The translations under genes were made by a program, and so were the position numbers. Positions 1,415-63,841 of a stretch of 64,000 bases of DNA are shown in pieces (within the stretch, counting starts at the first letter, position 1; every line of letters begins with the position of its first letter). Source of the DNA: Patescibacteria group bacterium. Lineage in GTDB: Bacteria; Patescibacteriota; Minisyncoccia; 2-02-FULL-40-12. The notes under the pieces were generated by a model. It saw only the letters and a list, made by a program, of their open reading frames with translations. It ran no database searches and was not told where the DNA came from. The stretch is from NCBI GenBank assembly GCA_038062015.1, contig JBBTXZ010000005.1, forward strand, positions 24,215 to 88,214, read 5' to 3'.

Positions 1415-4400
1415 ATGAAGCCTGAATTCAGTTTACCGAGAACAGAAGAAGAAATCCAGAAGTTTTGGGAGGCCAACAAGGTTTTTGAAAAAACTCTCGA
1501 AAACCGCAAGCGAGGCAAAAAATTTGTTTTTTATGAAGGACCGCCCACGGCCAACGGCCTGCCTCACATCGGTCATTTTTTGACCCGGGCGTTTAAGGAT
1601 TTGTTCGTTCGCTATAAAACTATGCGCGGTTTTTTTGTCCCCCGCCGGGCCGGCTGGGATACTCATGGCCTGCCAGTTGAAATAGAAGTTGAAAAAGAGC
1701 TCGGATTGAAATCAAAAAAAGAAATTGAAAAATACGGCATTGCCAAGTTCAATAAAAAAGCAAGGGAATCGGTCTGGCGCTATAAAGGTGAATGGGAGAA
1801 ATTTTCAAAGCGAATCGGATTCTGGCTGGATTTTGACAACCCTTATATCACCTATGCCAATGATTATATTGAAACGCTTTGGCATATAGTTAAGCAGTTT
1901 GATAAGAAAAAATTCCTGTATCAAGGCCATAAAGTTCTGCCCTGGTGCCCGCGCTGCGGTACTACCCTTTCAAGCCATGAAGTCGCTTTAGGATATGAAA
2001 GTATAACCGAGGATTCGGTTTATGTGAAGTTTAAAGTTACTGGCTATGAAAGATCACCGATCTATTTACTTGCTTGGACAACTACGCCTTGGACATTGCC
2101 CGGCAATGTTGCTTTGGCCGTTGGTAAAGATATAACTTATGTTAAGGGTTTTGTGCCGAATAAAGAGGAAATAGAATTTTATATCTTTGCAAAAGACCAA
2201 CTTCCTAAAATTAATGAAATTTTAGGTGAGGATTTGAATATAGTTACAGAATTCCCGGGAGGCGAGCTGGTCGGTTGGGAATACGAGCCCTTATTTGAAG
2301 TCAAAAAACTAAAATCCAATAAATCGTATAAAATTTATCCGGCTGATTTTGTGAATACCGAAGAAGGCGCCGGCGTAGTCCATACCGCGGTGATGTATGG
2401 AGAAGATGATTATCAATTAGGGGAAAAAGTCGGCCTGCCTAAACATCATACAGTAGATAAAGAAGGAAAATTCACTGAAGACGTTCCTGAATTTGCCGGC
2501 AGATTCGTTAAAGATGCCGAAAAAGACGTCATTGCTTACTTAAAAAACAAAAATCTTTTATTTAAAGTTGAACCTTATACTCATGATTATCCTTTTTGTT
2601 GGAGATGCAAAACGCCACTACTCTATTATGCGACCGATTCTTGGTTCGTAAAAACCACAGCCGTAAAAAAACAATTAATCGCCAACAACAAAAAAATAAA
2701 CTGGATTCCGCCCTACATTAAAGAGGGTCGTTTCGGCCAGTGGCTTAAAGAAGTCAAAGACTGGGCTTTTTCGCGAGACAGATATTGGGGAACGCCTCTG
2801 CCAATTTGGCATTGCCAAATTGGCAGAAGTAAAAAGTTAAAAGTTAAAAGTAAAAACTCAGATAATAATGGCTGCGGGAATTATTTAGTTATCGGATCAT
2901 TGGAAGAATTAGAGAAGCACCGCTATCAAAAACCAAACAGATACCATATCATCCGCCATGCCGAAAGCACAAAAAATATTGAGGGCCGGGAAATAAACAG
3001 CGTCAAACTGGAAAGTGATAAATATGATCTGACCGAAAAAGGGATCAACCAGGCCAGAAAATTAGCCAAAGATTTGAAAAACGAAAAAATAGACTTGATT
3101 TTCAGTTCCCCATTTTTAAGAGCTGAAAGAACCGCTGGAATAATAGCTGAAGAGTTGGGGCTTAAAGAAAAAGTTGACCACCGGCTTAAAGAAATAGACC
3201 ACGGAAGCGTCTGTGAAGGCAAGGATTATTTTGCCTGCATACCGAAAGGCCAATACCCTAACAAAGATTTTAACACTAAGTTCGGGCCGGATGGAGAGAG
3301 TCGGAATGACGTCAGAAAAAGAGTTTTTGATTTTATCAAAGAAACCGAAAGCAAATACGAAGATAAAAATATTTTAATCGTTAGCCACGGCGATCCTTTG
3401 TGGTTGATGGAGGGAATTTCAAAAAATCTTGGCGAAGAAGAATTATTTTCGGCGAAAAAGAACCAGATTTTGGGCATAAAAGATAATGCATTTAAGCTCA
3501 TTAAATTTGGAGAAAAAAGAGTTTTGGTTTTCGGCAATTATCCGAGGGATGAATTTGGGAATCCGGATCTTCACCGGCCGTATATAGATGAAGTTTTACT
3601 TAAATGCCCAAATTGTGGCGGCGGGACGCTAAGCGTCCCTGATAGCCACGCTCAGCGTGGCGAAATGAAACGGGTTCCGGAGGTAATTGATGTCTGGTTT
3701 GATTCGGGAGCAATGCCGTTTGCAAGTCGGCCTGACTTCCCGGCTGATTTTATAACCGAAGGCGTAGATCAGACCCGGGGCTGGTTCTACACTCTTTTGG
3801 CTGTTTCAACTCTTTTAGGCAAGAGTAATCCTTACAAAAATGTTATTTCTTTGGGTCATGTTTTGGATAAAGACGGGAAAAAGATGTCCAAGTCGCTTGG
3901 CAACGTGATTAAGCCTGATTATGTTATTGATAAATTCGGAGCTGATATTTCAAGATGGTGGTTTTATGGGGTTAATCAGGCCGGCGAATCAAAAAGTTTT
4001 CGAGAGGAAGAATTGAAAGAAATAACTAACGGCTTTGTCAGGGTGATTATAAATTCTTTGAGGTTTTGGCAATTATATAAAGGAAGTTCTAAAGCTAAAA
4101 TAAATTTCCACGATCTTAAAAATAAAAACTCTTTGAACTTATTAGACAGATGGTTATTATCAAAATGGAACAGTTTAGTTGATTTGGTTACAAAATCTTT
4201 GGATAAATACGACGCTACAACAGCAAGCAGAGAAATTGAAAAATTCGTGATTGAAGATTTATCCAATTGGTGGATTAGAAGAAGCCGGGATAAATTCCAA
4301 GTGCAACAAGGCGCTTCTCAGGAAGATTTACTAAGATTTGTCCTTTTGGAATTGTCGAAGTTAATTGCTCCGTTTGCGCCGTTTTTGGCGGAGTATCTGT

Positions 4401-5026
4401 ATAAGGAACTGCATCATGGTGTTAAGTTAGACGTGGCGAGTATTCATTTTCACAATTGGCCCAAAGCCGACAAAAAGCTGATTGATGAAAAGTTGGAAAA
4501 AGAAATGGAATTAGTGAGAGAGATTGTAAGTCTGGGCTTGGCGGCAAGGAAAGACGCGGGAATTAAGGTGAGGCAACCGCTGGCTTCGCTTGAAGTTTCA
4601 AAGTTTCAAAGTTTCAAAGTTTCAGAAGAGTTATTGAATCTAATAAAAGAGGAAGTGAATGTGAAAGACATAGAATTTAAAAGTTTAAAGTTTAAAGAAA
4701 CTGACAAAGAAGAACTATCGGTTGTTTTGGACACTGAAATTTCGCCGGCTTTAAGAGCCGGGGGTTGGGTTAGAGAATTTATAAGAATAATCCAGGATGC
4801 CCGAAAGGATGTCGGTTATGAATATGATCAAAAAGTCAGGGCTTACTGGTTTACTGAAGACAAATCTTTGGCCGAAGCCATAAAAAGAGAAGAAAAATTC
4901 ATAGTTCAAAAAACGGTTTTGAAAGAACTTCGCCAGTCTAACCACGACCCGAAGTTTGCCTATGATGTTGAAAAAGTCTGGGAGTTGGAACCGGGCCGAA
5001 AAATTTGGCTGGGATTGAAAAAGTGA
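1415..5026 (+). CDS. ileS: Isoleucyl-tRNA synthetase (type 2, eukaryote-like) carrying an internal ~200-aa histidine-phosphatase-like domain insertion
   Basis: HIGH motif (PHIGH), KMSKS, WFDSG and the CPNCGG zinc knuckle. 1203 aa, longer than usual because of the inserted domain (see findings). Confidence 0.95.
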   Translation: MKPEFSLPRTEEEIQKFWEANKVFEKTLENRKRGKKFVFYEGPPTANGLPHIGHFLTRAFKDLFVRYKTMRGFFVPRRAGWDTHGLPVEIEVEKELGLKSKKEIEKYGIAKFNKKARESVWRYKGEWEKFSKRIGFWLDFDNPYITYANDYIETLWHIVKQFDKKKFLYQGHKVLPWCPRCGTTLSSHEVALGYESITEDSVYVKFKVTGYERSPIYLLAWTTTPWTLPGNVALAVGKDITYVKGFVPNKEEIEFYIFAKDQLPKINEILGEDLNIVTEFPGGELVGWEYEPLFEVKKLKSNKSYKIYPADFVNTEEGAGVVHTAVMYGEDDYQLGEKVGLPKHHTVDKEGKFTEDVPEFAGRFVKDAEKDVIAYLKNKNLLFKVEPYTHDYPFCWRCKTPLLYYATDSWFVKTTAVKKQLIANNKKINWIPPYIKEGRFGQWLKEVKDWAFSRDRYWGTPLPIWHCQIGRSKKLKVKSKNSDNNGCGNYLVIGSLEELEKHRYQKPNRYHIIRHAESTKNIEGREINSVKLESDKYDLTEKGINQARKLAKDLKNEKIDLIFSSPFLRAERTAGIIAEELGLKEKVDHRLKEIDHGSVCEGKDYFACIPKGQYPNKDFNTKFGPDGESRNDVRKRVFDFIKETESKYEDKNILIVSHGDPLWLMEGISKNLGEEELFSAKKNQILGIKDNAFKLIKFGEKRVLVFGNYPRDEFGNPDLHRPYIDEVLLKCPNCGGGTLSVPDSHAQRGEMKRVPEVIDVWFDSGAMPFASRPDFPADFITEGVDQTRGWFYTLLAVSTLLGKSNPYKNVISLGHVLDKDGKKMSKSLGNVIKPDYVIDKFGADISRWWFYGVNQAGESKSFREEELKEITNGFVRVIINSLRFWQLYKGSSKAKINFHDLKNKNSLNLLDRWLLSKWNSLVDLVTKSLDKYDATTASREIEKFVIEDLSNWWIRRSRDKFQVQQGASQEDLLRFVLLELSKLIAPFAPFLAEYLYKELHHGVKLDVASIHFHNWPKADKKLIDEKLEKEMELVREIVSLGLAARKDAGIKVRQPLASLEVSKFQSFKVSEELLNLIKEEVNVKDIEFKSLKFKETDKEELSVVLDTEISPALRAGGWVREFIRIIQDARKDVGYEYDQKVRAYWFTEDKSLAEAIKREEKFIVQKTVLKELRQSNHDPKFAYDVEKVWELEPGRKIWLGLKK

Positions 5027-5040
5027 TAGGATAGAGTTAA

Positions 5041-6738
5041 ATGATCCGTCGAATAATAATCGGTTTATTCATTCTTTTGATTTTCGGCACGGCTATTTTT
5101 TTGTTGTACCGGAGCGGATTCCGCGAAGGCAATGTCATTTTTAAAATAGAAGCTCCGGACCAAGTCTCATCCGGAGAAGAAATTGAATACCGGCTCATCA
5201 TTGAAAACAGAAACAATTTTGATTTGAATAACACCAAGCTTTCGTTGTCTTATCCCGGCGGAACGATTTGGTTCAATAAAGAAGGCCAGCCGTCCAATTC
5301 GGCGATCAATAATATTGATTCAGCCGGGTTTCAAAGACGCGAGAGAAAAGAATTTATTTTAAGGGCAATTTTGACCGGCGAAAAAGGCGAGATTAAAAAA
5401 ATAAAGGCCGAATTCACTTATAGCCCGAGCGGCATCAAGCCGGTTTTTCAAAAAAGCGCCGAAGCCGGAACAACCATTTCGAAAGTTTCCATCCCTCTAA
5501 CTTTGAGCGGGCCGCCCAATGTCCTGCCCGGCCAACTGGTTCAGATCTCCCTTGATTTAAGAAATGAAACCGAAGATGACTTTAAGGATTTAGAAGTAGT
5601 TTTTTCCTATCCCGACGGCTTCATTTTCAAAAAAGCTTCGTTTTTGCCGAACCAGAGCAATAACGTATTTAATTTGTCTTTGCTTAAATCAGGGGAAGGC
5701 GTGAGGATTACTATTGAAGGCAATGTTTCCGGTTTTGAAAAAGAAAGCAAAAGATTTATCGCCGCATTAAAAAGAAAAATAGACGGGAAATTCTTTGATT
5801 TTCAAAAAACCCAGGTTCTGCTTACTGTTTCGTCGCCTCTTTTAGCCCTTGATGTTTTAGTGAATGATTCAAAAGATTATATCGCTAAAGCCGGAGACAA
5901 TTTAAAATATAAGATTATATTTTCAAATAATTCCGACAATAACTTTTCAGCTTTGGAATTGTCCGTTAAGCTTGAAGGCCAGATGTTTGACTTGGTTAGT
6001 TTGAAGACCAGCGGCTTTTTTGATCAAAACTCCAGGACAATTTTATGGAACGCGGCCGCCGAGCCGGCACTGGCGAATTTAAGCCCCAATCAAAGGGGAG
6101 AAGTTTCTTTTGATATTAATCTCAAGCCGGATTTTCCAAAGGCTTTCGGCAAAAATTATTCTTTGAAGGCGGGTTCTTCAATCCAGACTTCGTCGGTGCC
6201 TCCGGATTTTAATTTGGATAAGATTACGGCTTTAGCCGAATTGATTACCAAAGTTAAATCAAAGACTGATTTCATCTCCAAAGCTTTTTATAATGATTTA
6301 GTGTTTTCAAACACGGGTCCGGTGCCGCCGCAAGTTGGCCAAAAGACCACTTATACGATACATTGGAAGATAGTCAACGAGGGTAATGACCTGACCAATG
6401 TCAGAATCGTTTCGTCGCTTTTACCAGGCATCAGTTGGGAGAATAAATTTAAAATTATGCCGATCCAGTCAGATTTGAATTATAGTCTTTCAACCGGACA
6501 GATTTCCTGGAGTGTTCCGACTGTGCCAGCCGGAACCGGAATTGTTTCCCCGGTTTTTGAAGCGGTTTTTCAGGTTGGTGTAACGCCAAGCGTGAATCAA
6601 TCCGGCCAGAATTTGGGGATTTTAAAAGAGGTGGTTTTTGAAGCGGTTGATAACTTCACCAAAGAGAAAATTAATTTAAGTCAGCCCGGGATTAATACCC
6701 AGTTCGGGGTGGATTCTCCGGGGACGGTGCAGCCATAA
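5041..6738 (+). CDS. Hypothetical membrane-anchored, beta-rich extracytoplasmic protein
   Basis: N-terminal TM helix (IIIGLFILLIFGTAIFLLY), then a long S/T/N-rich region with repetitive beta-strand-like segments. No recognisable catalytic motif. Confidence 0.5.
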   Translation: MIRRIIIGLFILLIFGTAIFLLYRSGFREGNVIFKIEAPDQVSSGEEIEYRLIIENRNNFDLNNTKLSLSYPGGTIWFNKEGQPSNSAINNIDSAGFQRRERKEFILRAILTGEKGEIKKIKAEFTYSPSGIKPVFQKSAEAGTTISKVSIPLTLSGPPNVLPGQLVQISLDLRNETEDDFKDLEVVFSYPDGFIFKKASFLPNQSNNVFNLSLLKSGEGVRITIEGNVSGFEKESKRFIAALKRKIDGKFFDFQKTQVLLTVSSPLLALDVLVNDSKDYIAKAGDNLKYKIIFSNNSDNNFSALELSVKLEGQMFDLVSLKTSGFFDQNSRTILWNAAAEPALANLSPNQRGEVSFDINLKPDFPKAFGKNYSLKAGSSIQTSSVPPDFNLDKITALAELITKVKSKTDFISKAFYNDLVFSNTGPVPPQVGQKTTYTIHWKIVNEGNDLTNVRIVSSLLPGISWENKFKIMPIQSDLNYSLSTGQISWSVPTVPAGTGIVSPVFEAVFQVGVTPSVNQSGQNLGILKEVVFEAVDNFTKEKINLSQPGINTQFGVDSPGTVQP

Positions 6739-13565: not shown

Positions 13566-15986
13566 ATGAAATATAATCCAAACAAAATAGAACGAAAATG
13601 GCAACGTTACTGGGAGAATAAAAAACTTTATCAAACTAAAGATAAAGTCAAAGGCAAGAAAAATTTTTATCATTTGGTGATGTTTCCTTATACTTCAGGC
13701 GATCTTCATATGGGACATTGGTATAATTATGCGCCATCAGACGTATATGCCCGTTTCAAGCGGATGCAGGGATTAAATGTAATGGCGCCGATCGGTTTTG
13801 ACGCTTTCGGGCTTCCGGCTGAAAATGCGGCCATCCAAAGAAATATCAATCCGGCTGATTGGACCAGACAAAATATCTCGTATATGACCAAGCAATTAAA
13901 AAGCATGGGCGCAATTTTTGACTGGTCGAGAAAAGTAGAAACAATTGACCCCGAATACTATAAATGGACCCAGTGGATATTTTTGAAGTTTTATGAAAAG
14001 GGTTTGGCTTATCGAGCTAAAACAAAAGTAAATTGGTGTCCTAAGGATAAAACTGTTTTGGCTAACGAGCAGGTCGTGGATAATTGCTGCGAAAGGTGTG
14101 GGACTCAGGTGGTTCAGAAAGAATTAGTTCAGTGGATGTTTAAAATCACAAAATATGCCGATCAGCTTATTGATGATTTGGAAAAACTTGATTGGCCTGA
14201 AATAACTAAAACCGCCCAGAAGAATTGGATAGGAAGATCGCAGGGAGCAGTTATAAAATTTCAAGTTGAAAATTCAAAGAATTATGTAGATGTTTTTACG
14301 ACTAGGCCTGATACTATTTTCGGCGCTACTTTTATGGTTTTAGCGCCGGAGCATGAATTGGTTAAGAAAATTACTAAAGATCAATTTTTAGGCCAAGTAA
14401 ATAATTATCTTGAGAATGCAAAAAAGAAAACAGAGCTTGAAAGATTGGCTGAAGTAAAAGAAAAGACAGGGGTTTTTACTGGTGCTTATGCTTTCAATCC
14501 GGCAACCAAAGAGAAAATTCCGATTTGGATTTCTGATTTTGTTTTGCCTCATTACGGTACTGGCGCGATTATGGCTGTTCCGGCCCATGATGAAAGGGAT
14601 TTTGAGTTTGCAAAGAAGTTTAATTTATCCATTAGGGAAGTTATTGGCGGCGGCGATATTTTAAAAGAAGCGTACGAAGGCGAAGGTAAATTGATTAATT
14701 CGGGGAAGTTTTCCGGAATGGATTCTGAAAAAGCCAAGTGGGAAATTACAGAATTTGTCGGCGGAAAGAAAATGATTTCTTATCGGCTGCACGACTGGAT
14801 AATTTCTCGTCAGCGGTATTGGGGGGCGCCGATCCCAATGGTTTATTGCCAGAAATGTGATTGGCAGCCAGTTTCAGAAAAAGATTTGCCGGTTTTACTG
14901 CCTAAAATAAGAGATTACAAACCCCCTGGAACTGGAGAGCCGCCTTTAGTTAAAGCTAAAGATTGGCTCAATGTAAAATGTCCAAGATGTTTCGGTCAAG
15001 CTCGGCGTGAGACGGATACCATGGATGCTTTCGTTGATTCGGCTTGGTATTTTCTGCGATATAGCGATCCAAAAAACAAAAAACAATTTGCTTCAAAAGA
15101 CAAATTGGAGTCTTGGCTTCCGGTAGATATGTATATCGGCGGCCAGGAGCACGCCACTAAACACCTGCTTTATGCCAGATTTATAACCAAAGTTTTGAAT
15201 GACTCTGGTTATTTGAGTTTTGACGAGCCGTTTAAGACTATGAGGCATCAAGGTCTGATTTTGGGCCTTGACGGGAATAAAATGTCTAAATCAAGAGGCA
15301 ATATAGTTGATCCCGATGAAATGGTTAAGAAATTTGGTTCAGATTCTGTTCGAATGTATCTTTGTTTTATGGGGCCTTATGAAAACGGCGGACCTTGGGA
15401 TCCGAAAGCGATTGTTGGAGTATTCAGATTCCTAAACCGAGTTTGGAATCTGATAAAACCCAAATTCCAAAATCCAAATGACAAATCAATTCCAAATTCC
15501 AAAATCCAAAACAAAGAATTAGATAAAGTTTTCAATAAAGCGATTAAAAAAGTTGGCGAAGATATAGAAAACTTAAGATTTAACACAGCGGTGAGCGAAT
15601 TGATGAAGTTACTTAACGAAATAGAAGATTTTATTAATAAAGGTTTTACGTTTCAAGTTTCAAGCTTCAAGGTCTTTTTGAAATTGCTGGCGCCATTCGC
15701 GCCGCATTTAGCTGAAGAGCTTTGGCATCAGATTGGGAACAAAAAATCAATCCATTTAGAAAAGTGGCCGGAGTATAACCCGAAACTTATTGAAGATGAG
15801 ACAGTTGATTTGGTGATTCAAGTTAATGGCCGGACTCGGGATGTAATCAAAGCCCCGCATGATTTAACCGAGCCGCAAGCCCGCGAATTGGCTCTAGCTT
15901 CGGAAAAAATCAAAAAATACGTTTCCGGAAAAGAAATCAAAAAATTTATTTACATCCCCAACAAAATCGCTAATATAGTAATTTAA
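13566..15986 (+). CDS. leuS: Leucyl-tRNA synthetase
   Basis: HMGH (HIGH) motif and KMSKS. Start placed at MKYNPNKIERKWQ (the track ORF begins upstream inside the insertion). Carries an in-frame 'ccaaaatccaaa' repeat at ~15459..15511. Confidence 0.9.
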   Translation: MKYNPNKIERKWQRYWENKKLYQTKDKVKGKKNFYHLVMFPYTSGDLHMGHWYNYAPSDVYARFKRMQGLNVMAPIGFDAFGLPAENAAIQRNINPADWTRQNISYMTKQLKSMGAIFDWSRKVETIDPEYYKWTQWIFLKFYEKGLAYRAKTKVNWCPKDKTVLANEQVVDNCCERCGTQVVQKELVQWMFKITKYADQLIDDLEKLDWPEITKTAQKNWIGRSQGAVIKFQVENSKNYVDVFTTRPDTIFGATFMVLAPEHELVKKITKDQFLGQVNNYLENAKKKTELERLAEVKEKTGVFTGAYAFNPATKEKIPIWISDFVLPHYGTGAIMAVPAHDERDFEFAKKFNLSIREVIGGGDILKEAYEGEGKLINSGKFSGMDSEKAKWEITEFVGGKKMISYRLHDWIISRQRYWGAPIPMVYCQKCDWQPVSEKDLPVLLPKIRDYKPPGTGEPPLVKAKDWLNVKCPRCFGQARRETDTMDAFVDSAWYFLRYSDPKNKKQFASKDKLESWLPVDMYIGGQEHATKHLLYARFITKVLNDSGYLSFDEPFKTMRHQGLILGLDGNKMSKSRGNIVDPDEMVKKFGSDSVRMYLCFMGPYENGGPWDPKAIVGVFRFLNRVWNLIKPKFQNPNDKSIPNSKIQNKELDKVFNKAIKKVGEDIENLRFNTAVSELMKLLNEIEDFINKGFTFQVSSFKVFLKLLAPFAPHLAEELWHQIGNKKSIHLEKWPEYNPKLIEDETVDLVIQVNGRTRDVIKAPHDLTEPQARELALASEKIKKYVSGKEIKKFIYIPNKIANIVI

Positions 15987-22728: not shown

Positions 22729-23622
22729 ATGTATCCAAATCTGCGAATAATTATTTTAGGGGTATTAACTCTATTTTTGGTTTTGACCTTTGTGGTTGAA
22801 TTCCGTGGCGAATACGGACTTAAAGTCTATTTTTTTGATGTCGGCCAGGGCGATTCAATTTTTATTGAAACAGAAGAAAAGAAACAAATTCTGATTGACG
22901 GCGGGCCGGATAACAAAGTGGTTCAAAAATTATCAGAAGCAATGCCATTTTGGGACCGAACCATAGACTTGGTTATTCTGACTCATCCGGACAAGGACCA
23001 TATCTTAGGTTTAATCGAAGTCTTGAAAAGATACCGAGTTAAGGGAATCATTGAAACTGGAATCGAATGCGGGAAAGCGGAATGTGTAGTCTGGAAAGAG
23101 TTGAAAGAAAAAGAAAAAGCGCCGGTTATTTTCGTGAAACTCGGCGACTCGTTAATACTTAACGAAAATACTAAAATTTTAATTTTAAATCCTTTCGCCG
23201 ATATGGCCGGAGAAAAAATTTCAAAAGCCAATAATTCTTCTATCGTGGCTAAATTAATCTACGATGGATACAGCATTTTATTGACCGGCGATATTGAGAA
23301 ACATATTGAAGAAAAGCTGGTTCTGGCCGGAGTAGACATTGATTCTGATTATCTTAAAATTCCGCATCATGGTTCTAAGACCTCAACCACCGAAGAATTT
23401 TTGGAAAAAATTTCCCCGCTTTCGGCTTTTATCTCTCTCGGCAAGAATAATTCTTACGGCCATCCGCATGATGAAGTTACCGGCCGTCTTGAAAAAAGAA
23501 ATATAAAATATTATCGTACTGATGAACTGGGAACTATTTTATTGAGTTGCAAGTTTAATGAACCGTGTTCAGTAAAATTCCAAATTCCAAATTCCAAAAT
23601 CCAAATAACAAATGACAAATAA
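22729..23622 (+). CDS. MBL-fold metallo-hydrolase (the ComEC C-terminal beta-lactamase domain as a separate gene)
   Basis: VYFFDVGQGDSIFIE and LVILTHPDKDHILG motifs. The 3' end runs into a 'ccaaaatccaaa' repeat. Confidence 0.8.
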   Translation: MYPNLRIIILGVLTLFLVLTFVVEFRGEYGLKVYFFDVGQGDSIFIETEEKKQILIDGGPDNKVVQKLSEAMPFWDRTIDLVILTHPDKDHILGLIEVLKRYRVKGIIETGIECGKAECVVWKELKEKEKAPVIFVKLGDSLILNENTKILILNPFADMAGEKISKANNSSIVAKLIYDGYSILLTGDIEKHIEEKLVLAGVDIDSDYLKIPHHGSKTSTTEEFLEKISPLSAFISLGKNNSYGHPHDEVTGRLEKRNIKYYRTDELGTILLSCKFNEPCSVKFQIPNSKIQITNDK

Positions 23623-23653
23623 AATCCAAAATCCAAATTCCAAAATAAATAAG

Positions 23654-24259
23654 ATGAAGAAATTACTAGCCGACCCCAAACATCCAAGGGAAGAAAAGAC
23701 CCTTGTTTTAATCAAGCCAGATGCCGTGAAAAGGGGGTTGGTCGGCGAAATAATCAAACGTTTTGAAAGCCGGGGACTTAAGATTATTGGTCTGAAAATG
23801 GTTCACGGCGCGCCAAAAGATTTTGACAAGCATTATCCTAAAAGCAAGGGATGGATTGCTAATTTAGGCAAAAGAACTATAGAAACCTACAAAAAATACA
23901 GTTACAGCTTGAAAAACGATTTTGGCACCGATGATCCGTTTAGAATCGGCAAAATTTTCCGTAACTGGCTGATTGATTTTATGGCTTCCGGGCCGGTGGT
24001 CAAGATTTTGATTGAAGGGGCTCATGCCATTGATGTGGTCAGAAAAATTGTCGGCGACACCCAGCCTCATTTTGCCCTGACCGGAACTATCCGCGGCGAT
24101 TTTAGTGTTGACTCGGCCGGCTCGGCGAATAAGTCAAAGCGGGCCGTTCATAATTTAGTTCACGCTTCGGGCGATAAAAATGAAGTCCGAAACGAAATAA
24201 TACTCTGGTTTAATCCCGAAGAAATCTGCGACTACAAGAGAGTGGAAGAGTTGATTTAA
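23654..24259 (+). CDS. ndk: Nucleoside-diphosphate kinase (with an internal insertion)
   Basis: TLVLIKPDAVKRGLVGEII... and active-site NLVHASGD. ATG at 23654. Confidence 0.8.
   Translation: MKKLLADPKHPREEKTLVLIKPDAVKRGLVGEIIKRFESRGLKIIGLKMVHGAPKDFDKHYPKSKGWIANLGKRTIETYKKYSYSLKNDFGTDDPFRIGKIFRNWLIDFMASGPVVKILIEGAHAIDVVRKIVGDTQPHFALTGTIRGDFSVDSAGSANKSKRAVHNLVHASGDKNEVRNEIILWFNPEEICDYKRVEELI
24203..24259. repeat. 56-bp direct repeat, copy 1 (the ndk 3' end)
   Basis: tctggtttaatcccgaagaaatctgcgactacaagagagtggaagagttgatttaa is repeated at 24998..25053. Confidence 0.9.
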
Positions 24260-24959: not shown

Positions 24960-24997
24960 AAGTAAATTATACGAAGTATTAAGAGATGGTCAAAGAT

Positions 24998-25053
24998 TCT
25001 GGTTTAATCCCGAAGAAATCTGCGACTACAAGAGAGTGGAAGAGTTGATTTAA
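24998..25053. repeat. 56-bp direct repeat, copy 2 (duplicate of the ndk 3' end), followed by the original ndk terminator
   Basis: Identical to 24203..24259. Followed by aaaaaccgctttaagcggttttttgg. Confidence 0.9.
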
Positions 25054-25084: not shown

Positions 25085-25091
25085 TTTTAGT

Positions 25092-25161
25092 CGGGCTGCC
25101 GGGATTTGCACCCGGGCTAAATCGACCCCATCGACTCGTGCTGCTGCTACACCACAGCCCG
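25092..25161 (-). tRNA. tRNA-Pro(GGG)-like cloverleaf with non-canonical D-loop and T-loop (could be a tRNA-like element)
   Basis: Manual fold on the minus strand: acceptor CGGGCUG/CAGCCCG (7 bp), D-stem GUGU/GCAC, anticodon stem AGUCG/CGAUU with loop AUGGGGU (U33, GGG, G37), T-arm CCGGG-UGCAAAU-CCCGG. Lacks G18G19 and has G55. Begins 6 nt after the rpmB stop. Confidence 0.45.
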
Positions 25162-26515: not shown

Positions 26516-26632
26516 GTTTTTGTCTGCGAGCGTTAGCGAGCAGTGACAAAAAGTTACCGAGCACATAATTAAATTTTATGTGCTCGGTGCTCAATGTTGT
26601 AGCTATTCGCTTCGCTCATAGACAACATTGGC

Positions 26633-27100
26633 ATGAGACAAGGACAAGCACCTAAAAGACCAAACGAACCAGACATTAAATACCAAAGCGCTCTAGTCGC
26701 TAAATTTATTAATTACATAATGAGAAGCGGCCGCAAGACGATTGCCCGCCGGATTGTTTATGATTCTCTGGAGAGCGCCGAAAAAAAATTGGGCAAAAGC
26801 CCTTTGGAAATTTTAGAGCAAGTCATAAAAAATGCCGGCCCGGATCAGGAATTAAGAAGCCGCCGGATCGGCGGGGCCAATTATCAGATTCCTTATCCGG
26901 TTAAGCAAGACCGGAGAATTACTTTAGCTTTACGTTGGATAATAGATGCGGCTAAAGCGAAAAAAGGGAAGCCGATGGATGATAAACTAACCCAGGAACT
27001 GATTGATGCTTTTAATAATACCGGCTTGGCAGTTAAGAAAAAGATAGATACTCACAGAATGGCGGATGCGAATAAAGCTTTTGCTCACTTTGCTTGGTGA
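26633..27100 (+). CDS. rpsG: 30S ribosomal protein S7
   Basis: Conserved S7 sequence pattern and gene order rpsL-rpsG-fusA. Confidence 0.92.
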   Translation: MRQGQAPKRPNEPDIKYQSALVAKFINYIMRSGRKTIARRIVYDSLESAEKKLGKSPLEILEQVIKNAGPDQELRSRRIGGANYQIPYPVKQDRRITLALRWIIDAAKAKKGKPMDDKLTQELIDAFNNTGLAVKKKIDTHRMADANKAFAHFAW

Positions 27101-27305
27101 CAGAGAGAATATAGAACACAGAATATAGAATATAGGATATAGGATATAGAATAAGAATGACCAATTCCTTTAAGGATTTGATAGTTTGGCAAAAGTCTAA
27201 ACAACTAGCCGTAGAAATATATAAACTAATTTAGAAGAAATAATGAAAATATTAAACAACTTTGTTAAGAAGTTATCTTAGTTTTAATTCTATATTCTAA
27301 ATTCT
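27101..27305. repeat. ~200-bp spacer bounded by inverted 'tagaat'-type repeat arrays (MITE-like element)
   Basis: Left end gaatatagaatataggatataggatatagaat. Right end ttctatattctaaattctat (inverse). A compact version lies at 39181..39258. Confidence 0.5.
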
Positions 27306-29438: not shown

Positions 29439-29509
29439 GTTTTTGTCTACGAGCGAAGCGAGTGGCTACAAAAAGTATACCCGCCTTAGGCGGGCGCTGA
29501 AATTTATAG

Positions 29510-29860: not shown

Positions 29861-29952
29861 ACCGAGCACATAAATTAGCCGAAAAAAGGCTAATTTATGT
29901 GCTCGGTGAGCGATTTTGCAGCTGCTCACTTCGTTCGCAGGCGAAAATCGTC

Positions 29953-34149: not shown

Positions 34150-34226
34150 CATCTACAAAATTACAAATCATTTACGAATATACAAATTTGTATATTTGTA
34201 GGGATTTGTAAATTCGTAGATATTTA

Positions 34227-36216: not shown

Positions 36217-36292
36217 TACTACGAAGTACGAATCAGTCCGAATGTACGAATTCGTATATTCGTAAAGATTCGTAAATTCGTAGTTTAACATT

Positions 36293-38037: not shown

Positions 38038-38167
38038 AGGCTTGGTTGAAAAATTCAAGCCAAAGGCGTAGAATTTTTCAACCAAGCCTTTACCCGCCTA
38101 AGGCGGGCGCTCAACTTTGTAGTTGTTCGCTTCACCCCGCTGAGCGGGGATTCGCTCACAAACAAAA

Positions 38168-39183: not shown

Positions 39184-39258
39184 AGATAGAACATAGAATA
39201 TAGAATATAGAATGTAGAATACGATCCTATGTTCTATATTCTAAATTCTACATTCTAA

Positions 39259-39585
39259 ATGGATTCAAAAGAAAAACGACAAAAAAGAATAAGACGGCAT
39301 AAACGGGTGAGAGCGGTTGTGAAAGGCACAAGTGAGCGGCCTCGTTTTTCTGTTTTTCGTTCAAACAAACGGATTTACGCTCAACTGATTGACGATTTCA
39401 GAGGGATGACTTTATTAAACGGGAGCAATGTTAAAACATCTGCTTTTAAGGTCGGAGAAACTTTGGCGAAAAAAGCATTAGAGAAGGGAATAAATTCAGT
39501 TGTTTTTGATAGAGGAGGATATAAATATCACGGCCAAGTTAAGGCTTTAGCCGAAGGGGCAAGAAAAGGCGGATTGAAATTTTAG
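39259..39585 (+). CDS. rplR: 50S ribosomal protein L18
   Basis: L18 pattern (...[20 protein letters not shown]...). Confidence 0.92.
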
Positions 39586-40074: not shown

Positions 40075-40521
40075 ATGCAGCTATACGAATTAAAACCATT
40101 ACAAAAAAGAAAAAATAAAAAACGGGTCGGCCGGGGAGGCAAGCGAGGCACTTATTCCGGCAAAGGGCAGAAAGGCCAAAAGTCCCGTGCCGGTGCCGGG
40201 ATAAAGCCGGGTTTTCGCGGCGGCGACACCCCGCTTTGGAAAAAATTCCATAAAGCCAGAGGCGCGACCAAAACACTGGATATAAAAAAGCGCGGTTTCC
40301 AGCTTCGCCATCCCAAGCCGGAAATTGTTAATTTAAGAGATCTGGAAAGAAATTTTTCAGAGGGCGAGATGGTTTCACCTGAAACGTTGATGGAAAAAAG
40401 GCTGGTGAAAAAAGTAAAGCATGGTGTTAAAATTTTAGGCAAAGGCGAGCTTCGCAAGAAATTGATATTCAAAGGAATAAAGATGTCAAAATCAGTGAAA
40501 GAAAGAATTGCGAGGGTATAG
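40075..40521 (+). CDS. rplO: 50S ribosomal protein L15
   Basis: GRGGKRGTYSGKGQKGQKSR L15 pattern. Directly follows rpsE, so no L30 gene. Confidence 0.92.
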   Translation: MQLYELKPLQKRKNKKRVGRGGKRGTYSGKGQKGQKSRAGAGIKPGFRGGDTPLWKKFHKARGATKTLDIKKRGFQLRHPKPEIVNLRDLERNFSEGEMVSPETLMEKRLVKKVKHGVKILGKGELRKKLIFKGIKMSKSVKERIARV

Positions 40522-40567
40522 CCAATTTCTTCTCTGAATTTTTTAGACAAATAATCTTTAGAGAGTA
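40522..40567 (+). repeat. ~46-bp intergenic repeat (ccaatttcttctctgaattttttagacaaataatc...agagag), copy 1 of 3
   Basis: Also at 42833..42879 (inverted) and 63838..63883 (direct). Confidence 0.85.
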
Positions 40568-42832: not shown

Positions 42833-42879
42833 GACCTCTCTGAGGATTATTTGTCTAAAAAATTCAGAGAAGAAATTGG
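42833..42879 (-). repeat. ~46-bp intergenic repeat, copy 2 (inverted orientation)
   Basis: gacctctctgaggattatttgtctaaaaaattcagagaagaaattgg is the reverse complement of copy 1. Confidence 0.85.
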
Positions 42880-42912
42880 TCATACCCGAGCAAGTTTGCT
42901 ATCGTTAAATCA

Positions 42913-51866: not shown

Positions 51867-52475
51867 ATGGCAAGAGTAGCACTCTGCGATATTCGTGGAC
51901 TGCTCGTTGATACGATCGAGAAGCTGTCGGGCGAAGATGGTACCGAGTGGGCTGAAGAGTTCAAGCAGATTCTCCGTAAGGGAGTATCGGGTTTGCTCAG
52001 GAAGTTCACCGAAGTCATGGCCACCGGCGTCCAGAGGTTCGTCGCCAGAGACGCTTTCGGCGAGAACAACGCTGACGGCATCAAGTTCTATCTCTGGCCG
52101 AATTTCGTGAACAACTACCTCGGTAAGATCGAGGAAGACGTGAAGCCGGCGACCATCGTCATCCACCGTCTCGAGAAGGCATCGCGCAACGACAAAATCA
52201 TGGCCGAGCTGGGCATTGACATCAAGACCAAGAAGGGGGTCATCAAGTTGGCCCACTTCCGCGAGATGCTCAAAGTTCAAGCCCAAGGCCAGGAAGGTCT
52301 TCTTCTTGTTAACGGTTACGCAAACATGGCGTATATCGAAGATGAGAAAGGGAAGGTCTGGGCCGTGTACGCGTACTGGTATTCGTCGTATCGCGAGTGG
52401 CGCGTCTTTGCCGACTCTGTCGAGGACCCGTGCGAGTGGTTTCAGGGCGACCGGGTTCTCTCGCAAGTATCCTAG
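51867..52475 (+). CDS. DGR target (variable) protein, GC-rich; the C-terminal ~36 aa are encoded by the variable repeat
   Basis: Strong SD aaggagg 7 nt upstream. The 3' end (52357..52462) matches the downstream TR except at TR adenines. A terminator follows. Confidence 0.8.
   Translation: MARVALCDIRGLLVDTIEKLSGEDGTEWAEEFKQILRKGVSGLLRKFTEVMATGVQRFVARDAFGENNADGIKFYLWPNFVNNYLGKIEEDVKPATIVIHRLEKASRNDKIMAELGIDIKTKKGVIKLAHFREMLKVQAQGQEGLLLVNGYANMAYIEDEKGKVWAVYAYWYSSYREWRVFADSVEDPCEWFQGDRVLSQVS
52357..52462 (+). repeat. DGR variable repeat (VR)
   Basis: 106-nt alignment with 52788..52893. All 16 mismatches lie where the TR has A (VR has T, C or G). Confidence 0.85.
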
Positions 52476-52512
52476 GATCTTGGGTCTTCGGACTTTTGGT
52501 CCTTGGGTCCGC

Positions 52513-52555
52513 CGGGTCGGTTGGAGTTTTCAACCGACCCGTTTTCTTTTACAAA
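52513..52555 (+). terminator. Hairpin + T-run downstream of the VR (gggtcggttgg...ccaaccgaccc gttttctttt)
   Basis: Seen directly. May also act as the DGR target-recognition hairpin. Confidence 0.6.
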
Positions 52556-52787
52556 AGTTTCCAGTAAGATATATTTGGATAGTAGGCGAATCTGCCGGCG
52601 GTTACGGCTTCCGGCGGCCGAACTCCAGGCGTGCATAATGGTTTTGAATATAGGAGCCTTAAAAACGAAGATACTTGGTGCGGAATATTAGGGGAATAAG
52701 GAAAATTATATTCCGAGGGTCCCGAATTCGATACAGTCCTGAGAGCATTCAAGGGGCAGTGGCACAGAAGATATTCCGTACGATAAT

Positions 52788-52893
52788 CTGGGCCGTGAAC
52801 GCGAACTGGAATTCGTCGAATCGCGAGTGGAACGTCAATGCCAACTCTGTCGAGAACCCGAACGAGTGGAATCAGGGCAACCAGGTTCTCTCG
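52788..52893 (+). repeat. DGR template repeat (TR), non-coding, rich in AAC codon-equivalents
   Basis: In the VR frame it would encode WAVNANWNSSNREWNVNANSVENPNEWNQGNQ. The ORF 52675..52989 in the track is an artefact of this repeat. Confidence 0.85.
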
Positions 52894-52920
52894 AAAATCT
52901 CTTCGTTCAATCCGCCTTAT

Positions 52921-53196
52921 CTATTGGCGGGTTGTTTTTTTCTGCCAGCCGCCGAGCATCCGGCCGACCTCTTCAAGTTTTATAGATAGAGCAATATACT
53001 GTTTACTATTCAATAGTTTTAGTTCCCACATTATCTGAAAAAGGAATTTTAGTATATCAAACGAGTCAGATGCTTTATTGAGATATATCAGTTTATCCGG
53101 TTTTGTTTTCCGACTCGCGATAAAAATATTCTGAATCGTTTCAATAAATAAAGATTCAATTTTAGCTCCAAGTCCGAATCTGGTCAGTTTGTCCAA
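52921..53196 (-). CDS. avd: Avd-like accessory variability determinant (four-helix-bundle, 23S-IVS protein family), antisense to TR and RT
   Basis: C-terminus ...YIALSIKLEEVGRMLGGWQKK matches the IVS/Avd family ending (E-I/V-G-K/R-M-L-x-G-L/W). TTG start, with no in-frame ATG upstream. Confidence 0.55.
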   Translation of the reverse strand: MDKLTRFGLGAKIESLFIETIQNIFIASRKTKPDKLIYLNKASDSFDILKFLFQIMWELKLLNSKQYIALSIKLEEVGRMLGGWQKKTTRQ

Positions 53197-53263
53197 ATGA
53201 ATCCAATAACCATGCCAAATCTTGTAAGCGGCAATAAGCTTTTGGAGTATCGGCAGAGTAAGG

Positions 53264-54247
53264 TTGGGGGGGGGGCGTAGAAGTCATCTTTATTATGAAG
53301 ATATTATCTCACTTGAAAATATTTTGGAAGCGTGGAAAGAATTCATCAAAGACAAAAGAAAGAAAAAAGATGTCTATGAGTTCCAGTTGAATCTGATGGA
53401 TAATATTTTGGAACTCCACCGAGATTTAAAGAGCTTCAAATATATTCATGGTGGTTATAAGGTATTCAAAATCAACGATCCGAAACCAAGAAACATCCAT
53501 AAAGCCGATGTCAGAGACAGATTACTGCATCACGCCATTTACAGAATTTTGTATCCGTTTTTTGATAGGACGTTTATTAGTGACTCTTTTTCCTGCAGAA
53601 ACTACAAAGGGACTCACAGGGCCTTAAACAGATTCAGAAGGTTTGGTTACAAGGTCAGTAAAAATAACACTAAAACCTGCTGGGTTTTAAAATGCGACAT
53701 CAGGAAATTCTTTGAAAATATTAGCCAAGATATTCTAATCGGTATTTTAAAAAAGTATATTCCAGATAAAAAAGTAATCTGGCTGCTTGAAAAAGTAATC
53801 CGCAGTTTTTCTTCTGGTTTGCCCCTCGGAAATCTTACTTCCCAACTCTTAATCAATATCTATATGAATGAATTTGACCAGTTTGTGAAACATAAATTAA
53901 GGATTAAATATTATATCAGATATGCTGATGATTTTGTCATCTTTTCGGGAGATAGAAACTGGCTTGAAAGTAAAATAGAACCGATTAGGAACTTCTTATC
54001 TGACAGATTGAAATTAGAGCTTCATTCGGATAAGATTTTCATTAAAACCTTAGCTTCGGGAGTTGATTTTCTCGGCTGGGTTCATTTTCCGGACCACAGA
54101 ATTCTAAGAACAACTACCAAAAGAAGAATGTTTAGAAGATTAAAAGAATCAAGAAATCAAGAAACTCTTAATTCTTATTTGGGGTTGATTAAACACGGGA
54201 ACACTGGAAAGATAAAAAAGAAGATTTATTTAATTCAAAAATTATGA
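53264..54247 (+). CDS. DGR reverse transcriptase
   Basis: RT motifs, including the catalytic YADD (IRYADDFVIF) and an upstream ...LPLGNLTSQLLINIYMNEFD (motif 4/5-like). TTG start flanked by a 10-G homopolymer. Confidence 0.85.
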   Translation: MGGGRRSHLYYEDIISLENILEAWKEFIKDKRKKKDVYEFQLNLMDNILELHRDLKSFKYIHGGYKVFKINDPKPRNIHKADVRDRLLHHAIYRILYPFFDRTFISDSFSCRNYKGTHRALNRFRRFGYKVSKNNTKTCWVLKCDIRKFFENISQDILIGILKKYIPDKKVIWLLEKVIRSFSSGLPLGNLTSQLLINIYMNEFDQFVKHKLRIKYYIRYADDFVIFSGDRNWLESKIEPIRNFLSDRLKLELHSDKIFIKTLASGVDFLGWVHFPDHRILRTTTKRRMFRRLKESRNQETLNSYLGLIKHGNTGKIKKKIYLIQKL

Positions 54248-54534
54248 ACCCCCACACTCACAAAGCTTATATGTTCTACGTTTATTTAATAAAAAGTAGG
54301 AAAACAGGTAATTTATACACGGGTTGTACTAGTAATTTGGTAAAAAGATTCAAAGAACATAATGAAAACAAAAACTTTTCTACGAAGAATAAAGGACCAT
54401 TTGAACTTATTTACTATGAAGCATATAAAAATAAAGACGATGCTTTCAATCGCGAACATAATTTAAAGCTTCGTGCCAATGCTTTAACTGGTCTTAAAAG
54501 AAGGCTGGTTAAAAGCCTCGGCAAAGCTTTATGA
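54244..54534 (+). CDS. GIY-YIG nuclease family protein (YhbQ/UPF0213-like), overlapping the RT stop by 4 nt
   Basis: FYVYLIKSRKTGNLYTGCTSNLVKRFKEHN, the GIY-YIG signature. Confidence 0.75.
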   Translation: MNPHTHKAYMFYVYLIKSRKTGNLYTGCTSNLVKRFKEHNENKNFSTKNKGPFELIYYEAYKNKDDAFNREHNLKLRANALTGLKRRLVKSLGKAL

Positions 54535-63235: not shown

Positions 63236-63841
63236 TTAATATTCAACGCCTCGCTTTACCGGTCCAAATTTATATTTGATTTCCTTCATTTCTGTGGCGA
63301 TGTCGGCTAGGTATATGAATTTTTGGGGCGCGTTTCGGCCGGTAAGAATGATGTCAGTGCCTTGGGGCGCCTTTTTGAGTATTTTTAAGATATCGTTTTC
63401 AGAAATCAGTTTCAAACTGATGGCGACATTGACTTCGTCTAAAATTACAAGATCATATTTTTTGCTCAAAATTATTTTTTCAGCGAGCTTCAGAGTTTTT
63501 TGAGCCGCTTTTTTGTGGACTGAACGCGGAAGCCGGTCACCCATGATGCCGACAAAGCCTTTACCGCCTTTGATTATTTGAAAATTATAGAATTTTTTTA
63601 ATTCTTCTGTTAATTTTTTATTTTTGCTTTGTAATTTTGATTTTTGATTTTTAATTTTTGATATCAGGTAATCTTCTCCCGATACCCATGGTCCCTTGAT
63701 GAACTGGATCATTATAACTTTCTTGCCTTCGCCCAAAGCCCGGATGGCCTGGCCCAAAGCCGCAGTAGTCTTACCTTTGCCGTTACCGGTATAAACGATA
63801 ATCATAAATGTTTGTTCAGGGAAACCGGCCCGCAACACCAA
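63236..63841 (-). CDS. cobO: Cob(I)alamin adenosyltransferase (CobA/CobO/BtuR type)
   Basis: P-loop-like IIVYTGNGKGKTTAALG and overall BtuR pattern. Confidence 0.75.
   Translation of the reverse strand: MVLRAGFPEQTFMIIVYTGNGKGKTTAALGQAIRALGEGKKVIMIQFIKGPWVSGEDYLISKIKNQKSKLQSKNKKLTEELKKFYNFQIIKGGKGFVGIMGDRLPRSVHKKAAQKTLKLAEKIILSKKYDLVILDEVNVAISLKLISENDILKILKKAPQGTDIILTGRNAPQKFIYLADIATEMKEIKYKFGPVKRGVEY

Follow-up and report, generated by a model that had tools for sequence, protein, structure and literature searches.

What is the short palindromic module that lies in frame within several unrelated protein-coding genes of a Patescibacteria group bacterium, and how did it come to be there? We analyzed 64,000 nucleotides of this genome (GenBank assembly GCA_038062015.1, contig JBBTXZ010000005.1, forward-strand positions 24,215 to 88,214; hereafter the window, numbered from its first letter), in which a preliminary description had noted one module of about 38 bp at four sites, in ileS, in an open reading frame (ORF) beginning at 29510 (ORF29510), in lepA and in nrdJ, had stated that each copy was in frame, and had likened the module to Rickettsia palindromic elements (RPEs). 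All four copies were present, and all four were in frame and free of stop codons. Taken together, they are a genuine set of in-frame insertions, confined by lineage and not explicable by chance, of a double-hairpin element resembling repetitive extragenic palindromic (REP) sequences. The inserted sequence is almost certainly that of a mobile element, probably a small one of REP-like type present at each of the four sites as a solo copy. Its mobilization by a GIY-YIG nuclease, whose gene recurs beside the hairpins in other genomes, we put at a little under an even chance.

A 39-nt double hairpin in four genes

The repeated unit was exactly 39 nt, equal to 13 codons, at all four window sites, a correction to the length given earlier for what was otherwise the same module. 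It comprised two 17-nt palindromes with a 5-nt spacer between them, each palindrome being an 8-bp stem around a single central base, with 22 nt between the palindrome centers in every window copy. The ileS copy (3623-3661) reads GGGACGCTAAGCGTCCC-TGATA-GCCACGCTCAGCGTGGC, contains two perfect 8-bp palindromes and is translated as GGTLSVPDSHAQR; its NCCA-type hairpin (GCCA...) is the first on the minus strand. The copy in ORF29510 (29699-29737; GAGACGCTAAGCGTTTC-TGGTT-ATCACGCTCAGCGTGAT) adds 13 residues, and its stems pair at seven of eight positions plus one G-T, and at eight of eight. The lepA copy (59043-59081; GCCGCGCTCAGCGCGGC-TGTCT-GGGACGCTAAGCGTCCC) lies in the orientation opposite to that in ileS, and the codons across it read PRSARLSGTLSVP. 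Partly decayed, the nrdJ copy (60625-60663; ATCACGCTGAGCGTGAC-TACTG-GAGACGTTTAGCGTCCC in plus-strand letters, the gene being on the minus strand) is translated as GTLNVSSSHAQRD and has two mutated core or stem positions: hairpin 1 pairs at seven of eight positions, and the core of hairpin 2 carries a G-to-A change (ACGTTTAGCGT). When folded as single-stranded DNA, the three other copies gave both predicted hairpins, at -16.8 (the ileS copy), -10.2 and -18.3 kcal/mol (z = -4.2, -3.6 and -3.8, respectively), and the decayed nrdJ copy gave z = -2.6.

These sequences are strongly over-represented. The core CGCTNAGCG occurred 10 times in the window against 0.56 expected, and ACGCTNAGCGT, with at most one mismatch, matched 10 times against 0.64 expected; neither count was reached in any of 100 shuffles. 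An unsupervised repeat search of the window recovered the double-hairpin family independently (repeats D6, I3, I4 and I7).

Two further copies are intergenic and degenerate. The first (386-422; ATCACGCTGAGCGGATA-ttc-GTCGTGCTCAGCGCGAC, with 20-nt spacing) lies within the first copy of a direct repeat of 168 bp, and its predicted fold is one long hairpin (z = -1.8); the same degenerate unit recurs at 944-980, within the second copy. A hairpin reported earlier in this repeat as cgctgagcg-N13-cgctcagcg is actually CGCTGAGCG-N12-GCTCAGCG, that is, this degenerate copy with its 20-nt spacing. The 168-bp repeat itself (267-434 and 825-992, 98% identity) has an AT-rich stretch of 390 bp between its copies, the first of which covers the start and upstream region of a minus-strand gene encoding 2435 amino acids (locus L119 2-7306, coordinates converted).

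Evidence for insertion

The four host genes encode unrelated proteins. The ileS gene (1415-5026, plus strand) encodes isoleucyl-tRNA synthetase (IleRS) with an embedded His_Phos_1 domain, as identified by Pfam and PDB searches; ORF29510 (29510-29860, plus strand; likely start at the ATG at 29540) is encoded between fusA and tuf and specifies a small protein for which no Pfam family was found; lepA (58513-60369, plus strand), assigned by Pfam and by alignment with Thermus thermophilus elongation factor 4 (EF4), is followed on the minus strand by nrdJ (60370-63159), a class II ribonucleotide reductase gene recognized by Pfam and homology. For ileS and lepA, homologue comparisons drew on 120 listed homologues each.

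Both of these genes have relatives in which the insert is cleanly missing. Aligned with PDB entry 8c8u, the window IleRS reads CPNCG[GGTLSVPDSHAQR]GEMKR and the reference has an exact 13-residue gap. The distance from the CxxC motif to EVxDVWF was 21 residues in the window protein only and 8 in the others (22 scorable of the 120 listed homologues), and the closest listed relative (P0242, 80% identity) reads CPDCKGEMKR, without the insert, which 20 others lack as well. Removal of PRSARLSGTLSVP from LepA restores RVPPPKG and a length equal to that of Thermus EF4 (RIPPPKGD). Eleven aligned LepA relatives, the nearest 89% identical, have an exact 13-amino-acid gap at the insert site, a motif scan of the rest of the 120 listed homologues found nothing inserted there, and at the DNA level the syntenic loci L120 and L121 have an exact 39-nt gap. 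A related genome (P0021/L013) carries an independent 13-amino-acid insertion, NVALSATKNHAQR, at a different lepA site, and such separate sites make an ancestral segment lost in the other genomes unlikely.

The other two genes have a less simple history. Orthologues of ORF29510 in loci L167 and L168 (73% and 61% identity) hold decayed versions of the same 39 nt that are still in frame (in L167, GAA ATG CCA AAC GTT TCC GGT TAT CAC GTT CAG CCT GAT), and a more distant homologue (P0363) is without the segment; judged from these alignments, the insertion in ORF29510 is older than the lepA and ileS copies. The nrdJ copy sits in a hypervariable linker ahead of the C-terminal zinc finger; L120 and L121 are without the element, and with the linker so variable no clean 39-nt empty site could be defined against them. 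At the same spot of the L120 nrdJ linker (about 5100-5200) we observed a different insert of 33 nt with CTCGCGAAGCGAG, a GCGAAGC-type mini-hairpin, as if insertions had landed in this linker repeatedly. A fifth copy within an ORF, also decayed, lies just past the window end at the N terminus of FtsE (L161 1724-1762). The view that these segments were inserted and are not ancestral is thus upheld by the exact 39-nt and 13-amino-acid gaps in lepA relatives and the 13-amino-acid gap in ileS; lineage specificity, which ortholog alignment had been expected to confirm, held for lepA and ileS but not for ORF29510, whose relatives share decayed copies, and nrdJ gave no clean gap.

As the preliminary description had proposed, the added peptides fall in loops or linkers in all four proteins: the linker joining the G domain of LepA to its domain II, the zinc-knuckle loop of IleRS, and variable linkers in NrdJ and the ORF29510 product. 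A poor AlphaFold model of LepA (12-sequence alignment, predicted local distance difference test score 55) shows residues 179-195, between these two domains, as low-confidence coil; we used the model only to note that this insert and a second LepA insert, described below, are both low-confidence coil. The His_Phos_1 domain embedded in IleRS (window 2945-3409, residues 511-665) was present in all 120 listed homologues and is a clade-wide trait of these Parcubacteria-type IleRS proteins.

A wider family with covarying stems

Genome and metagenome collections were scanned with the pattern RCGCTNAGCGY-N11-RCGCTNAGCGY. Among the matches listed, many were chance matches in high-GC genomes, so only loci below 48% GC were kept and the high-GC matches served as a negative control; the window genome itself was not among the matches listed. 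All of the low-GC matches listed had the same double-palindrome architecture. Their hosts were Patescibacteria (Parcubacteria, Saccharibacteria, Falkowbacteria and Paceibacterota), 'Bacterium BMS3Bbin08', several low-GC metagenome-assembled genomes (MAGs) labelled Gammaproteobacteria and one MAG labelled Udaeobacter. The element family is widespread in Patescibacteria and present in a few other lineages.

The stems of these elements vary in sequence and stay paired. In the outer three stem pairs, which lie outside the search pattern, 2.53 of 3 were paired in low-GC loci compared with 1.08 of 3 in the high-GC chance matches. Across 50 elements, 97.9% of stem cells were paired (28-47% in slid controls), and double-sided stem changes numbered 120 cells against 35.7 in shuffles, with none of 500 shuffles as high. 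What is kept in the family is (A/G)CGCT-N-AGCG(T/C); the central base, the spacer and the outer triplets are free, the triplet pairs including GGG/CCC, GCC/GGC, ACC/GGT, ACA/TGT and others, and the two cores within one element usually differ at the central base. Elements occurred in both orientations relative to the gene and in unrelated proteins. Orthologous insertions were kept across related genomes (L128/L129/L130, and the ftsE copies of L146 and L161), and tandem arrays with a 39-nt period were present in L088 and L160. The two tandem copies at L160 753-830 were identical save for their central loop bases (T,T versus C,C); this base may be unusually prone to mutation, or each insertion may set it anew.

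No Rfam family matched the element, and a literature search by core sequence found no paper describing the core as a repeat element. Viral contigs yielded two matches only, both in high-GC tandem repeats and probably unrelated. In three Pseudomonas genomes (L008, L012 and L106) we observed a near-identical double hairpin, GGGACGCTCAGCGTCCC-N5-CGGACGCTGAGCGTCCG, nested between TTCCCACGC(N3)GCGTGGGAA hairpins, and high-GC Gammaproteobacteria may likewise contain the double-hairpin architecture, in the form of a composite repeat between genes.

Reading frames of the copies in genes

Length and sequence together bear on why the copies in genes are in frame. Read as ACG CTN AGC GT, the core encodes T-L-S-V and never a stop; read as xAC GCT NAG CGT, it encodes H-A-Q/K/E-R, with a stop only if N is T; and read as CGC TNA GCG, it encodes R-S/L-A, but A or G at N creates a stop. 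Of 46 well-formed elements, 17 lie in ORFs of at least 150 amino acids, and most of these read (G/E)TLSVxxxHA(Q/K/E)RG. Variants of 38 nt were found in ORFs in 0 of 11 cases and variants of 39 nt in 17 of 48 (Fisher p = 0.024, from small numbers under biased ascertainment), consistent with survival in genes only of copies that are a multiple of three in length (3n) and stop-free. Peptides spanning an insert, such as GTLSVPDSHAQR or CGGGTLSVPDSHAQRGEMK, are the predicted products of translated inserts.

Flanking direct repeats and tRNA 3' ends

The sequence at the left boundary of the element recurs 39 nt further on. In 41 isolated elements the match was on average 4.5 nt long (median 5 nt), compared with 2.32 +/- 0.22 for mismatched pairs, and none of 2000 controls reached the observed value. 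The resulting direct repeat is 3-6 nt long: GGCG in ileS (3620-3623 and 3659-3662), ATGAG in ORF29510 (29697-29701 and 29736-29740) and CCGCC in lepA (59041-59045 and 59080-59084), with C|ACCA, C|GCCA and C|ACAA being common across the set. One copy of the repeat doubles as the outer 5' arm of hairpin 1, and because of this the inner 3' arm of hairpin 1 is complementary to the target.

The commonest non-coding position of the element is directly after a tRNA gene. At least 12 of the 46 well-formed elements begin exactly at the tRNA discriminator base, with N73-C-C-A forming the 5' arm of hairpin 1, and the four bases 3' of hairpin 2 were ACCA (10), GCCA (7), ACAA (3) and similar others in 41 oriented copies. 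At four orthologous tRNA-Leu loci (L051, L144, L149 and L150) the hairpins and core are kept while the loop base and spacer drift.

A GIY-YIG nuclease gene linked to the element

One of these tRNA-Leu loci holds more than a hairpin pair. The order in L051 is tRNA-Leu, element, an ORF of 90 amino acids and a second identical element, and the orthologous locus L150 has a solo element between the same tRNA-Leu and the same right flank; the two stand as filled and empty alleles, in this one locus pair. The L051 ORF is a GIY-YIG catalytic domain (Pfam PF01541, E = 1e-16; matches to PF01541 in the set ranged from E = 1e-16 to 5e-17). The nearest solved structures are UPF0213 proteins (1zg2 and 1ywl); SLX1, of a type of enzyme that cleaves structured DNA, gave a weak match.

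A local hidden Markov model search of all loci found 12 such ORFs, 11 of them within 200 nt of a hairpin. An independent set of five homologues, taken by protein similarity only and from different lineages of the Candidate Phyla Radiation, showed the same order in every case: a tRNA gene, a double hairpin beginning at the discriminator and, after a gap of 20-60 nt, a GIY-YIG gene in the same direction. The element in these five loci has a 4-nt spacer and is 38 nt long. Most members of the nuclease family carry the same palindrome inside the gene itself, as GCGACGCTAAGCGTCGC, encoding R-D-A-K-R-R. In a literature search we found no paper linking GIY-YIG genes to such repeats or reporting an association of this kind for UPF0213/COG2827.

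The window contains its own GIY-YIG gene (54271-54534, plus strand; Pfam E = 4.8e-17), 48% identical over 66 residues to the linked family. It adjoins a diversity-generating retroelement (DGR) and has no adjacent element, and its membership of the system is uncertain. The DGR (52357-54247) comprises an RVT_1 reverse transcriptase gene (53264-54247), bAvd (about 52921-53196) and a pair of 115-nt repeats (52357-52471 and 52787-52901, 83% identity) that resembles a template/variable repeat pair. The GIY-YIG gene (54249-54547 with its surroundings) lies inside a split hairpin, ACCCCCACACTCA-caaagcttat-[gene]-caaagctttat-GAGTGTGGGGGT, and looks as if it were a cassette inserted in the loop of a stem-loop, duplicating the loop.

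Two other observations concern GIY-YIG cassettes. In L163 (1643-1950), a second copy of the 3' part of tRNA-Tyr (gactcccaccctgtgc) lies some 200 nt downstream of the complete tRNA gene, just before the double hairpin and upstream of the GIY-YIG cassette, like the duplications made by tRNA-targeting integrative elements. In the window lepA, a second in-frame insertion of 17 amino acids (NDPSDKTQGHPERSRTD; 59668-59718), absent from most relatives, holds the palindrome CTCAGGGTCATCCTGAG and resembles a repeat, GTCATCCCGAGCGTAGCCGAGGGATCCC, that occurs on either side of a different GIY-YIG gene in L126 and L138. Its shape, (C/T)GTC-AT...AT-CC, suggests a CGTC-tagged REP.

Proposed explanation and its alternatives

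We propose that the element would insert at NCC(A)-like sites, for which tRNA 3' ends would be the best match and GCC- or CCG-rich codons the equivalent within genes. Insertion may rely on pairing of the target with the inner arm of the element, or on their microhomology, over 3-6 nt, and could proceed by a transposition-like step or by a nuclease-induced break with templated repair from another copy; landing where the ends of the element match the target would give the arm-to-target complementarity. The linked GIY-YIG nuclease may be the trans-acting enzyme, in the role that the REP-associated tyrosine transposase (RAYT) has for REPs, and may supply the break. A minimal structure-specific GIY-YIG nuclease would recognize a stem followed by NCCA, as presented by tRNA acceptor-end DNA or by hairpin 2, and would drive insertion of a 35-nt hairpin module, duplicating the NCCA-like target. 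Solo hairpins would then be non-autonomous derivatives on tRNA flanks, in intergenic DNA and, at 39 nt, in protein genes, throughout Patescibacteria and in other phyla. In genes, the copies that survive are those in loops or linkers, and they later change as any linker sequence does. Taken as a whole, double hairpin and gene of about 90 codons might constitute an undescribed kind of bacterial mobile element, a suggestion that we make tentatively.

Several points weigh against this explanation or parts of it. The nuclease link is an association only, and the nuclease could home to hairpin-bearing tRNA flanks without moving hairpins. About 100 kb of the host genome was scanned and showed no L051-type GIY-YIG gene and no tRNA-linked copy; the one GIY-YIG gene in the window, a distant paralogue, is separated from the nearest element by 4.5 kb. 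Because the search pattern demands 22-nt spacing, the data set is biased in its context frequencies and for the 3n test, and its numbers are small. Translation of the inserts is inferred from their open frames. As for the source of the inner arm complementary to the target triplet, P-nucleotide addition or fold-back synthesis leaves the fixed 8-bp arm and the conserved 7-nt center unexplained, and donor choice by microhomology would account for the arm more simply. A DNA-uptake sequence was also considered, comEC being present, and rejected, as copies arise as 39-nt blocks and not by point mutation.

Among the alternatives, a structured signal that benefits the host and has spread by recombination survives best, although we regard it as unlikely. 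Such a signal might serve tRNA-trailer processing, termination, mRNA stability or protein binding, with the copies in genes also functional. The orthologous tRNA-Leu loci, where hairpin and core are kept as loop base and spacer drift, are in its favor, as are the sequestering of the CCA end within hairpin 1 and the likeness of hairpin 2 plus ACCA to an acceptor minihelix. The in-gene copies, however, decay (ORF29510 orthologues, nrdJ and ftsE), occur in either orientation and in unrelated proteins, and are dispensed with by the closest relatives, which do well without them; nor does any Rfam family match.

It is quite unlikely that these are classical REPs or REPINs mobilized by a RAYT, an IS200/IS605-type Y1 transposase that would act on single-stranded hairpins at a base-paired target. 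IS608 recognizes its target by guide-target pairing, and the complementarity between target and arm is reminiscent of this. The stems moreover covary as hairpins, and intragenic REPs are documented (PMC3733652). Yet the unpaired GTAG tag of such elements was absent from the 50-copy alignment, in which flanks and spacer were variable, and the two hairpins are direct, with a fixed 4-5-nt spacer, instead of forming inverted REP doublets. Neither the called or scanned genes of the window and flanks nor those beside the elements in their loci included a Y1 transposase, and the gene found flanked by the repeats, and their recurrent neighbor, was that of a GIY-YIG nuclease. The window and its flanks in fact showed no transposase.

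Very unlikely, in our view, is that the inserts go untranslated, skipped by the ribosome like the byps of mitochondria or removed from the RNA. Lang et al. reportedly found in 2014 that GC-rich hairpin inserts in the mitochondrial coding regions of Magnusiomyces are bypassed, which speaks for the idea. A skipped or spliced insert, however, needs no constraint on length, frame or stops, whereas every in-gene copy examined was 39 nt and stop-free, 38-nt variants were absent from ORFs, and decayed copies remain in frame.

An origin as excision footprints or target duplications of IS4/IS10-like transposons is hardly credible. The core CGCTNAGCG does equal the 9-bp IS10 target consensus NGCTNAGCN (e.g. 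PMC4574204), GCTNAGC being the Tn10/IS10 hotspot consensus. We reject this origin because the paired cores within an element, which usually differ at the central base, are not duplicates; in addition, the hairpins show covariation in their outer arms, the window and flanks yielded no IS4-family transposase, and the element has a fixed length and an association with tRNA CCA ends. That the segments are ancestral coding sequence or chance palindromes, as the sharing of the segment by ORF29510 relatives might suggest, has next to no chance of being right, given the enrichment (10 against 0.6 expected), the exact 39-nt and 13-amino-acid gaps in close relatives, which refute it for lepA and ileS, and the recurrence of the same DNA, in either orientation, within unrelated genes, beside tRNA ends and in further phyla.

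Other repeats in the window

The window is rich in repeats of other kinds. Many intergenic spacers are imperfect tandem motifs of about 7 nt (such as AATTCCA, TAGAATA and TTTGTA(T/G)A) common to distant spacers, for example at 15455-15518, 23575-23652, 27097-27160, 34151-34222, 36224-36286 and 39186-39260. A 61-nt direct repeat (24199-24259 and 24993-25053, 97% identity), which copies the 3' end of an ndk-like gene, brackets a 794-bp segment with an ORF of 136 amino acids without a Pfam match; the segment adjoins tRNA-Pro (25090-25161) and is possibly a small cassette that became integrated. A repeat of 45-58 nt occurs in three copies of mixed orientation (40508-40565, 42836-42893 and 63837-63881; 90-98% identity), two of them flanking secY. 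The str and ribosomal operons contain further families of intergenic hairpins, namely ACCCGCCTNAGGCGGGC, CCCCGCTGAGCGGGG and a terminator-like CCGAGCACATAA...TTATGTGCTCGG followed by a shared 43-nt motif, at 29479-29495, 38092-38108 and 38134-38150, and also at 26558-26590 and 29862-29908.

Significance and comparison with known systems

The element extends selfish DNA within protein genes from Rickettsia and mitochondria to the Candidate Phyla Radiation, whose genomes are tiny and almost all coding, and it sits there in core translation and replication genes (those for IleRS, EF4, NrdJ and FtsE). Its copies suggest a rule of tolerance, namely 3n length, palindrome frames that avoid stops, and landing sites in loops. 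Inserts of 13 amino acids inflate apparent protein divergence and break assemblies, and many of the nuclease genes are on very short contigs. The link between tRNA CCA end, double hairpin and GIY-YIG gene offers a testable candidate for the missing mobilizing enzyme of CCA-tailed palindromic repeats, with a possible new mode of target recognition, a stem plus NCCA. If this is true, CCA-tailed repeats, possibly including the 'orphan' CGTC REPs, would have in GIY-YIG nucleases their counterpart of the RAYTs that serve GTAG REPs; the repeat that flanks another GIY-YIG gene in L126 and is inserted in the window lepA is a second of this sort.

The closest parallel in behavior is with the RPEs, of which RPE-1 to RPE-8 are said to have been described by Ogata et al. 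in 2000 and 2002 (for a summary, PMC3733652). Like them, the element is a selfish palindromic repeat found in frame in functional protein genes of a reduced-genome bacterium, where it adds surface peptides, and also in non-coding DNA. In size it differs, RPE-1 being about 100-150 bp and the element here exactly 39 nt; the short RPE-4 and RPE-6 are CGTC-tagged REPs, and RPEs are not known outside Rickettsia. The sequences are unrelated, and RPEs lack a fixed double hairpin of 17+5+17 and have not been reported in connection with tRNA CCA ends or GIY-YIG genes, a distinction drawn from their descriptions. The likeness to RPEs claimed at the outset therefore holds for the in-frame, loop-adding behavior but not for family membership, from which size, sequence and taxon separate the element.

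REPs and REPINs (REP/RAYT; Bertels and Rainey 2011, PMC3116915) are likewise hairpin repeats of 20-40 nt with 8-9-bp stems, often paired, that greatly outnumber the enzyme gene; sometimes they are intragenic and add 20-30 amino acids, as described for the GTAG and CGTC superfamilies (Di Nocera et al. 2013, PMC3733652). REPs of the CGTC group have a terminal CCA tail but no known dedicated transposase, and hairpin 2 of the element is typically followed by (A/G)CC(A). The element nevertheless has neither a GTAG nor a CGTC tag. Its stems do not start with AT, beginning instead with GGG, GCC, ACC and the like, and its loop, the central base or a T-N-A triloop, is 1-3 nt compared with 4-5 nt. Its hairpins are direct with a fixed 4-5-nt spacer, and its recurrent neighbor is a GIY-YIG nuclease gene, not that of a Y1 transposase.

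Transposable elements of the miniature inverted-repeat class (MITEs) invite comparison in that the palindromes of the element are inverted repeats of each other and a direct repeat of 3-6 nt flanks the unit, but this repeat overlaps a hairpin arm and varies in length, the element's 39 nt compare with 50-400 bp, and no parent insertion sequence was found, the only longer unit sharing an end being the L051 GIY-YIG cassette. Coxiella QMITE1 and QMITE2 (PMC5896051) are small non-autonomous repeats with short variable direct repeats that overlap ORFs in a reduced genome, as here; they differ in length (150-400 bp), in the GTAG REP of QMITE2 and in lacking a double 17-nt palindrome. The GC clusters of mitochondria (GC42 of yeast, PMC4478555) and the fungal double-hairpin elements (DHEs; Paquin et al. 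2000; PMC10085805) share the form of GC-rich modules, palindromic or double-hairpin, of about 40 nt in compact AT-rich genomes, are sporadic, have putative target-site duplications, and insert in genes and rRNA with no encoded transposase known. Unlike the element, they are organellar, unrelated to it in sequence and without a known link to tRNA CCA ends or a nuclease gene. The nuclease gene has its nearest counterpart, besides the UPF0213/YhbQ and SLX1 nucleases, in free-standing GIY-YIG homing genes, such as the Seg genes of phage T4, with SegB in a tRNA cluster (PMC2330249), each being a small GIY-YIG gene amid tRNA or conserved genes that behaves as a selfish cassette. Seg and I-Tev enzymes, by contrast, carry DNA-binding domains and home by flanking homology, whereas the gene here encodes a bare catalytic domain of about 90 amino acids and is preceded by a double hairpin that also exists as many solo copies. 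We read the element as new, akin to RPEs, REPs and GC clusters, and as belonging to neither the RPE nor the REP family.

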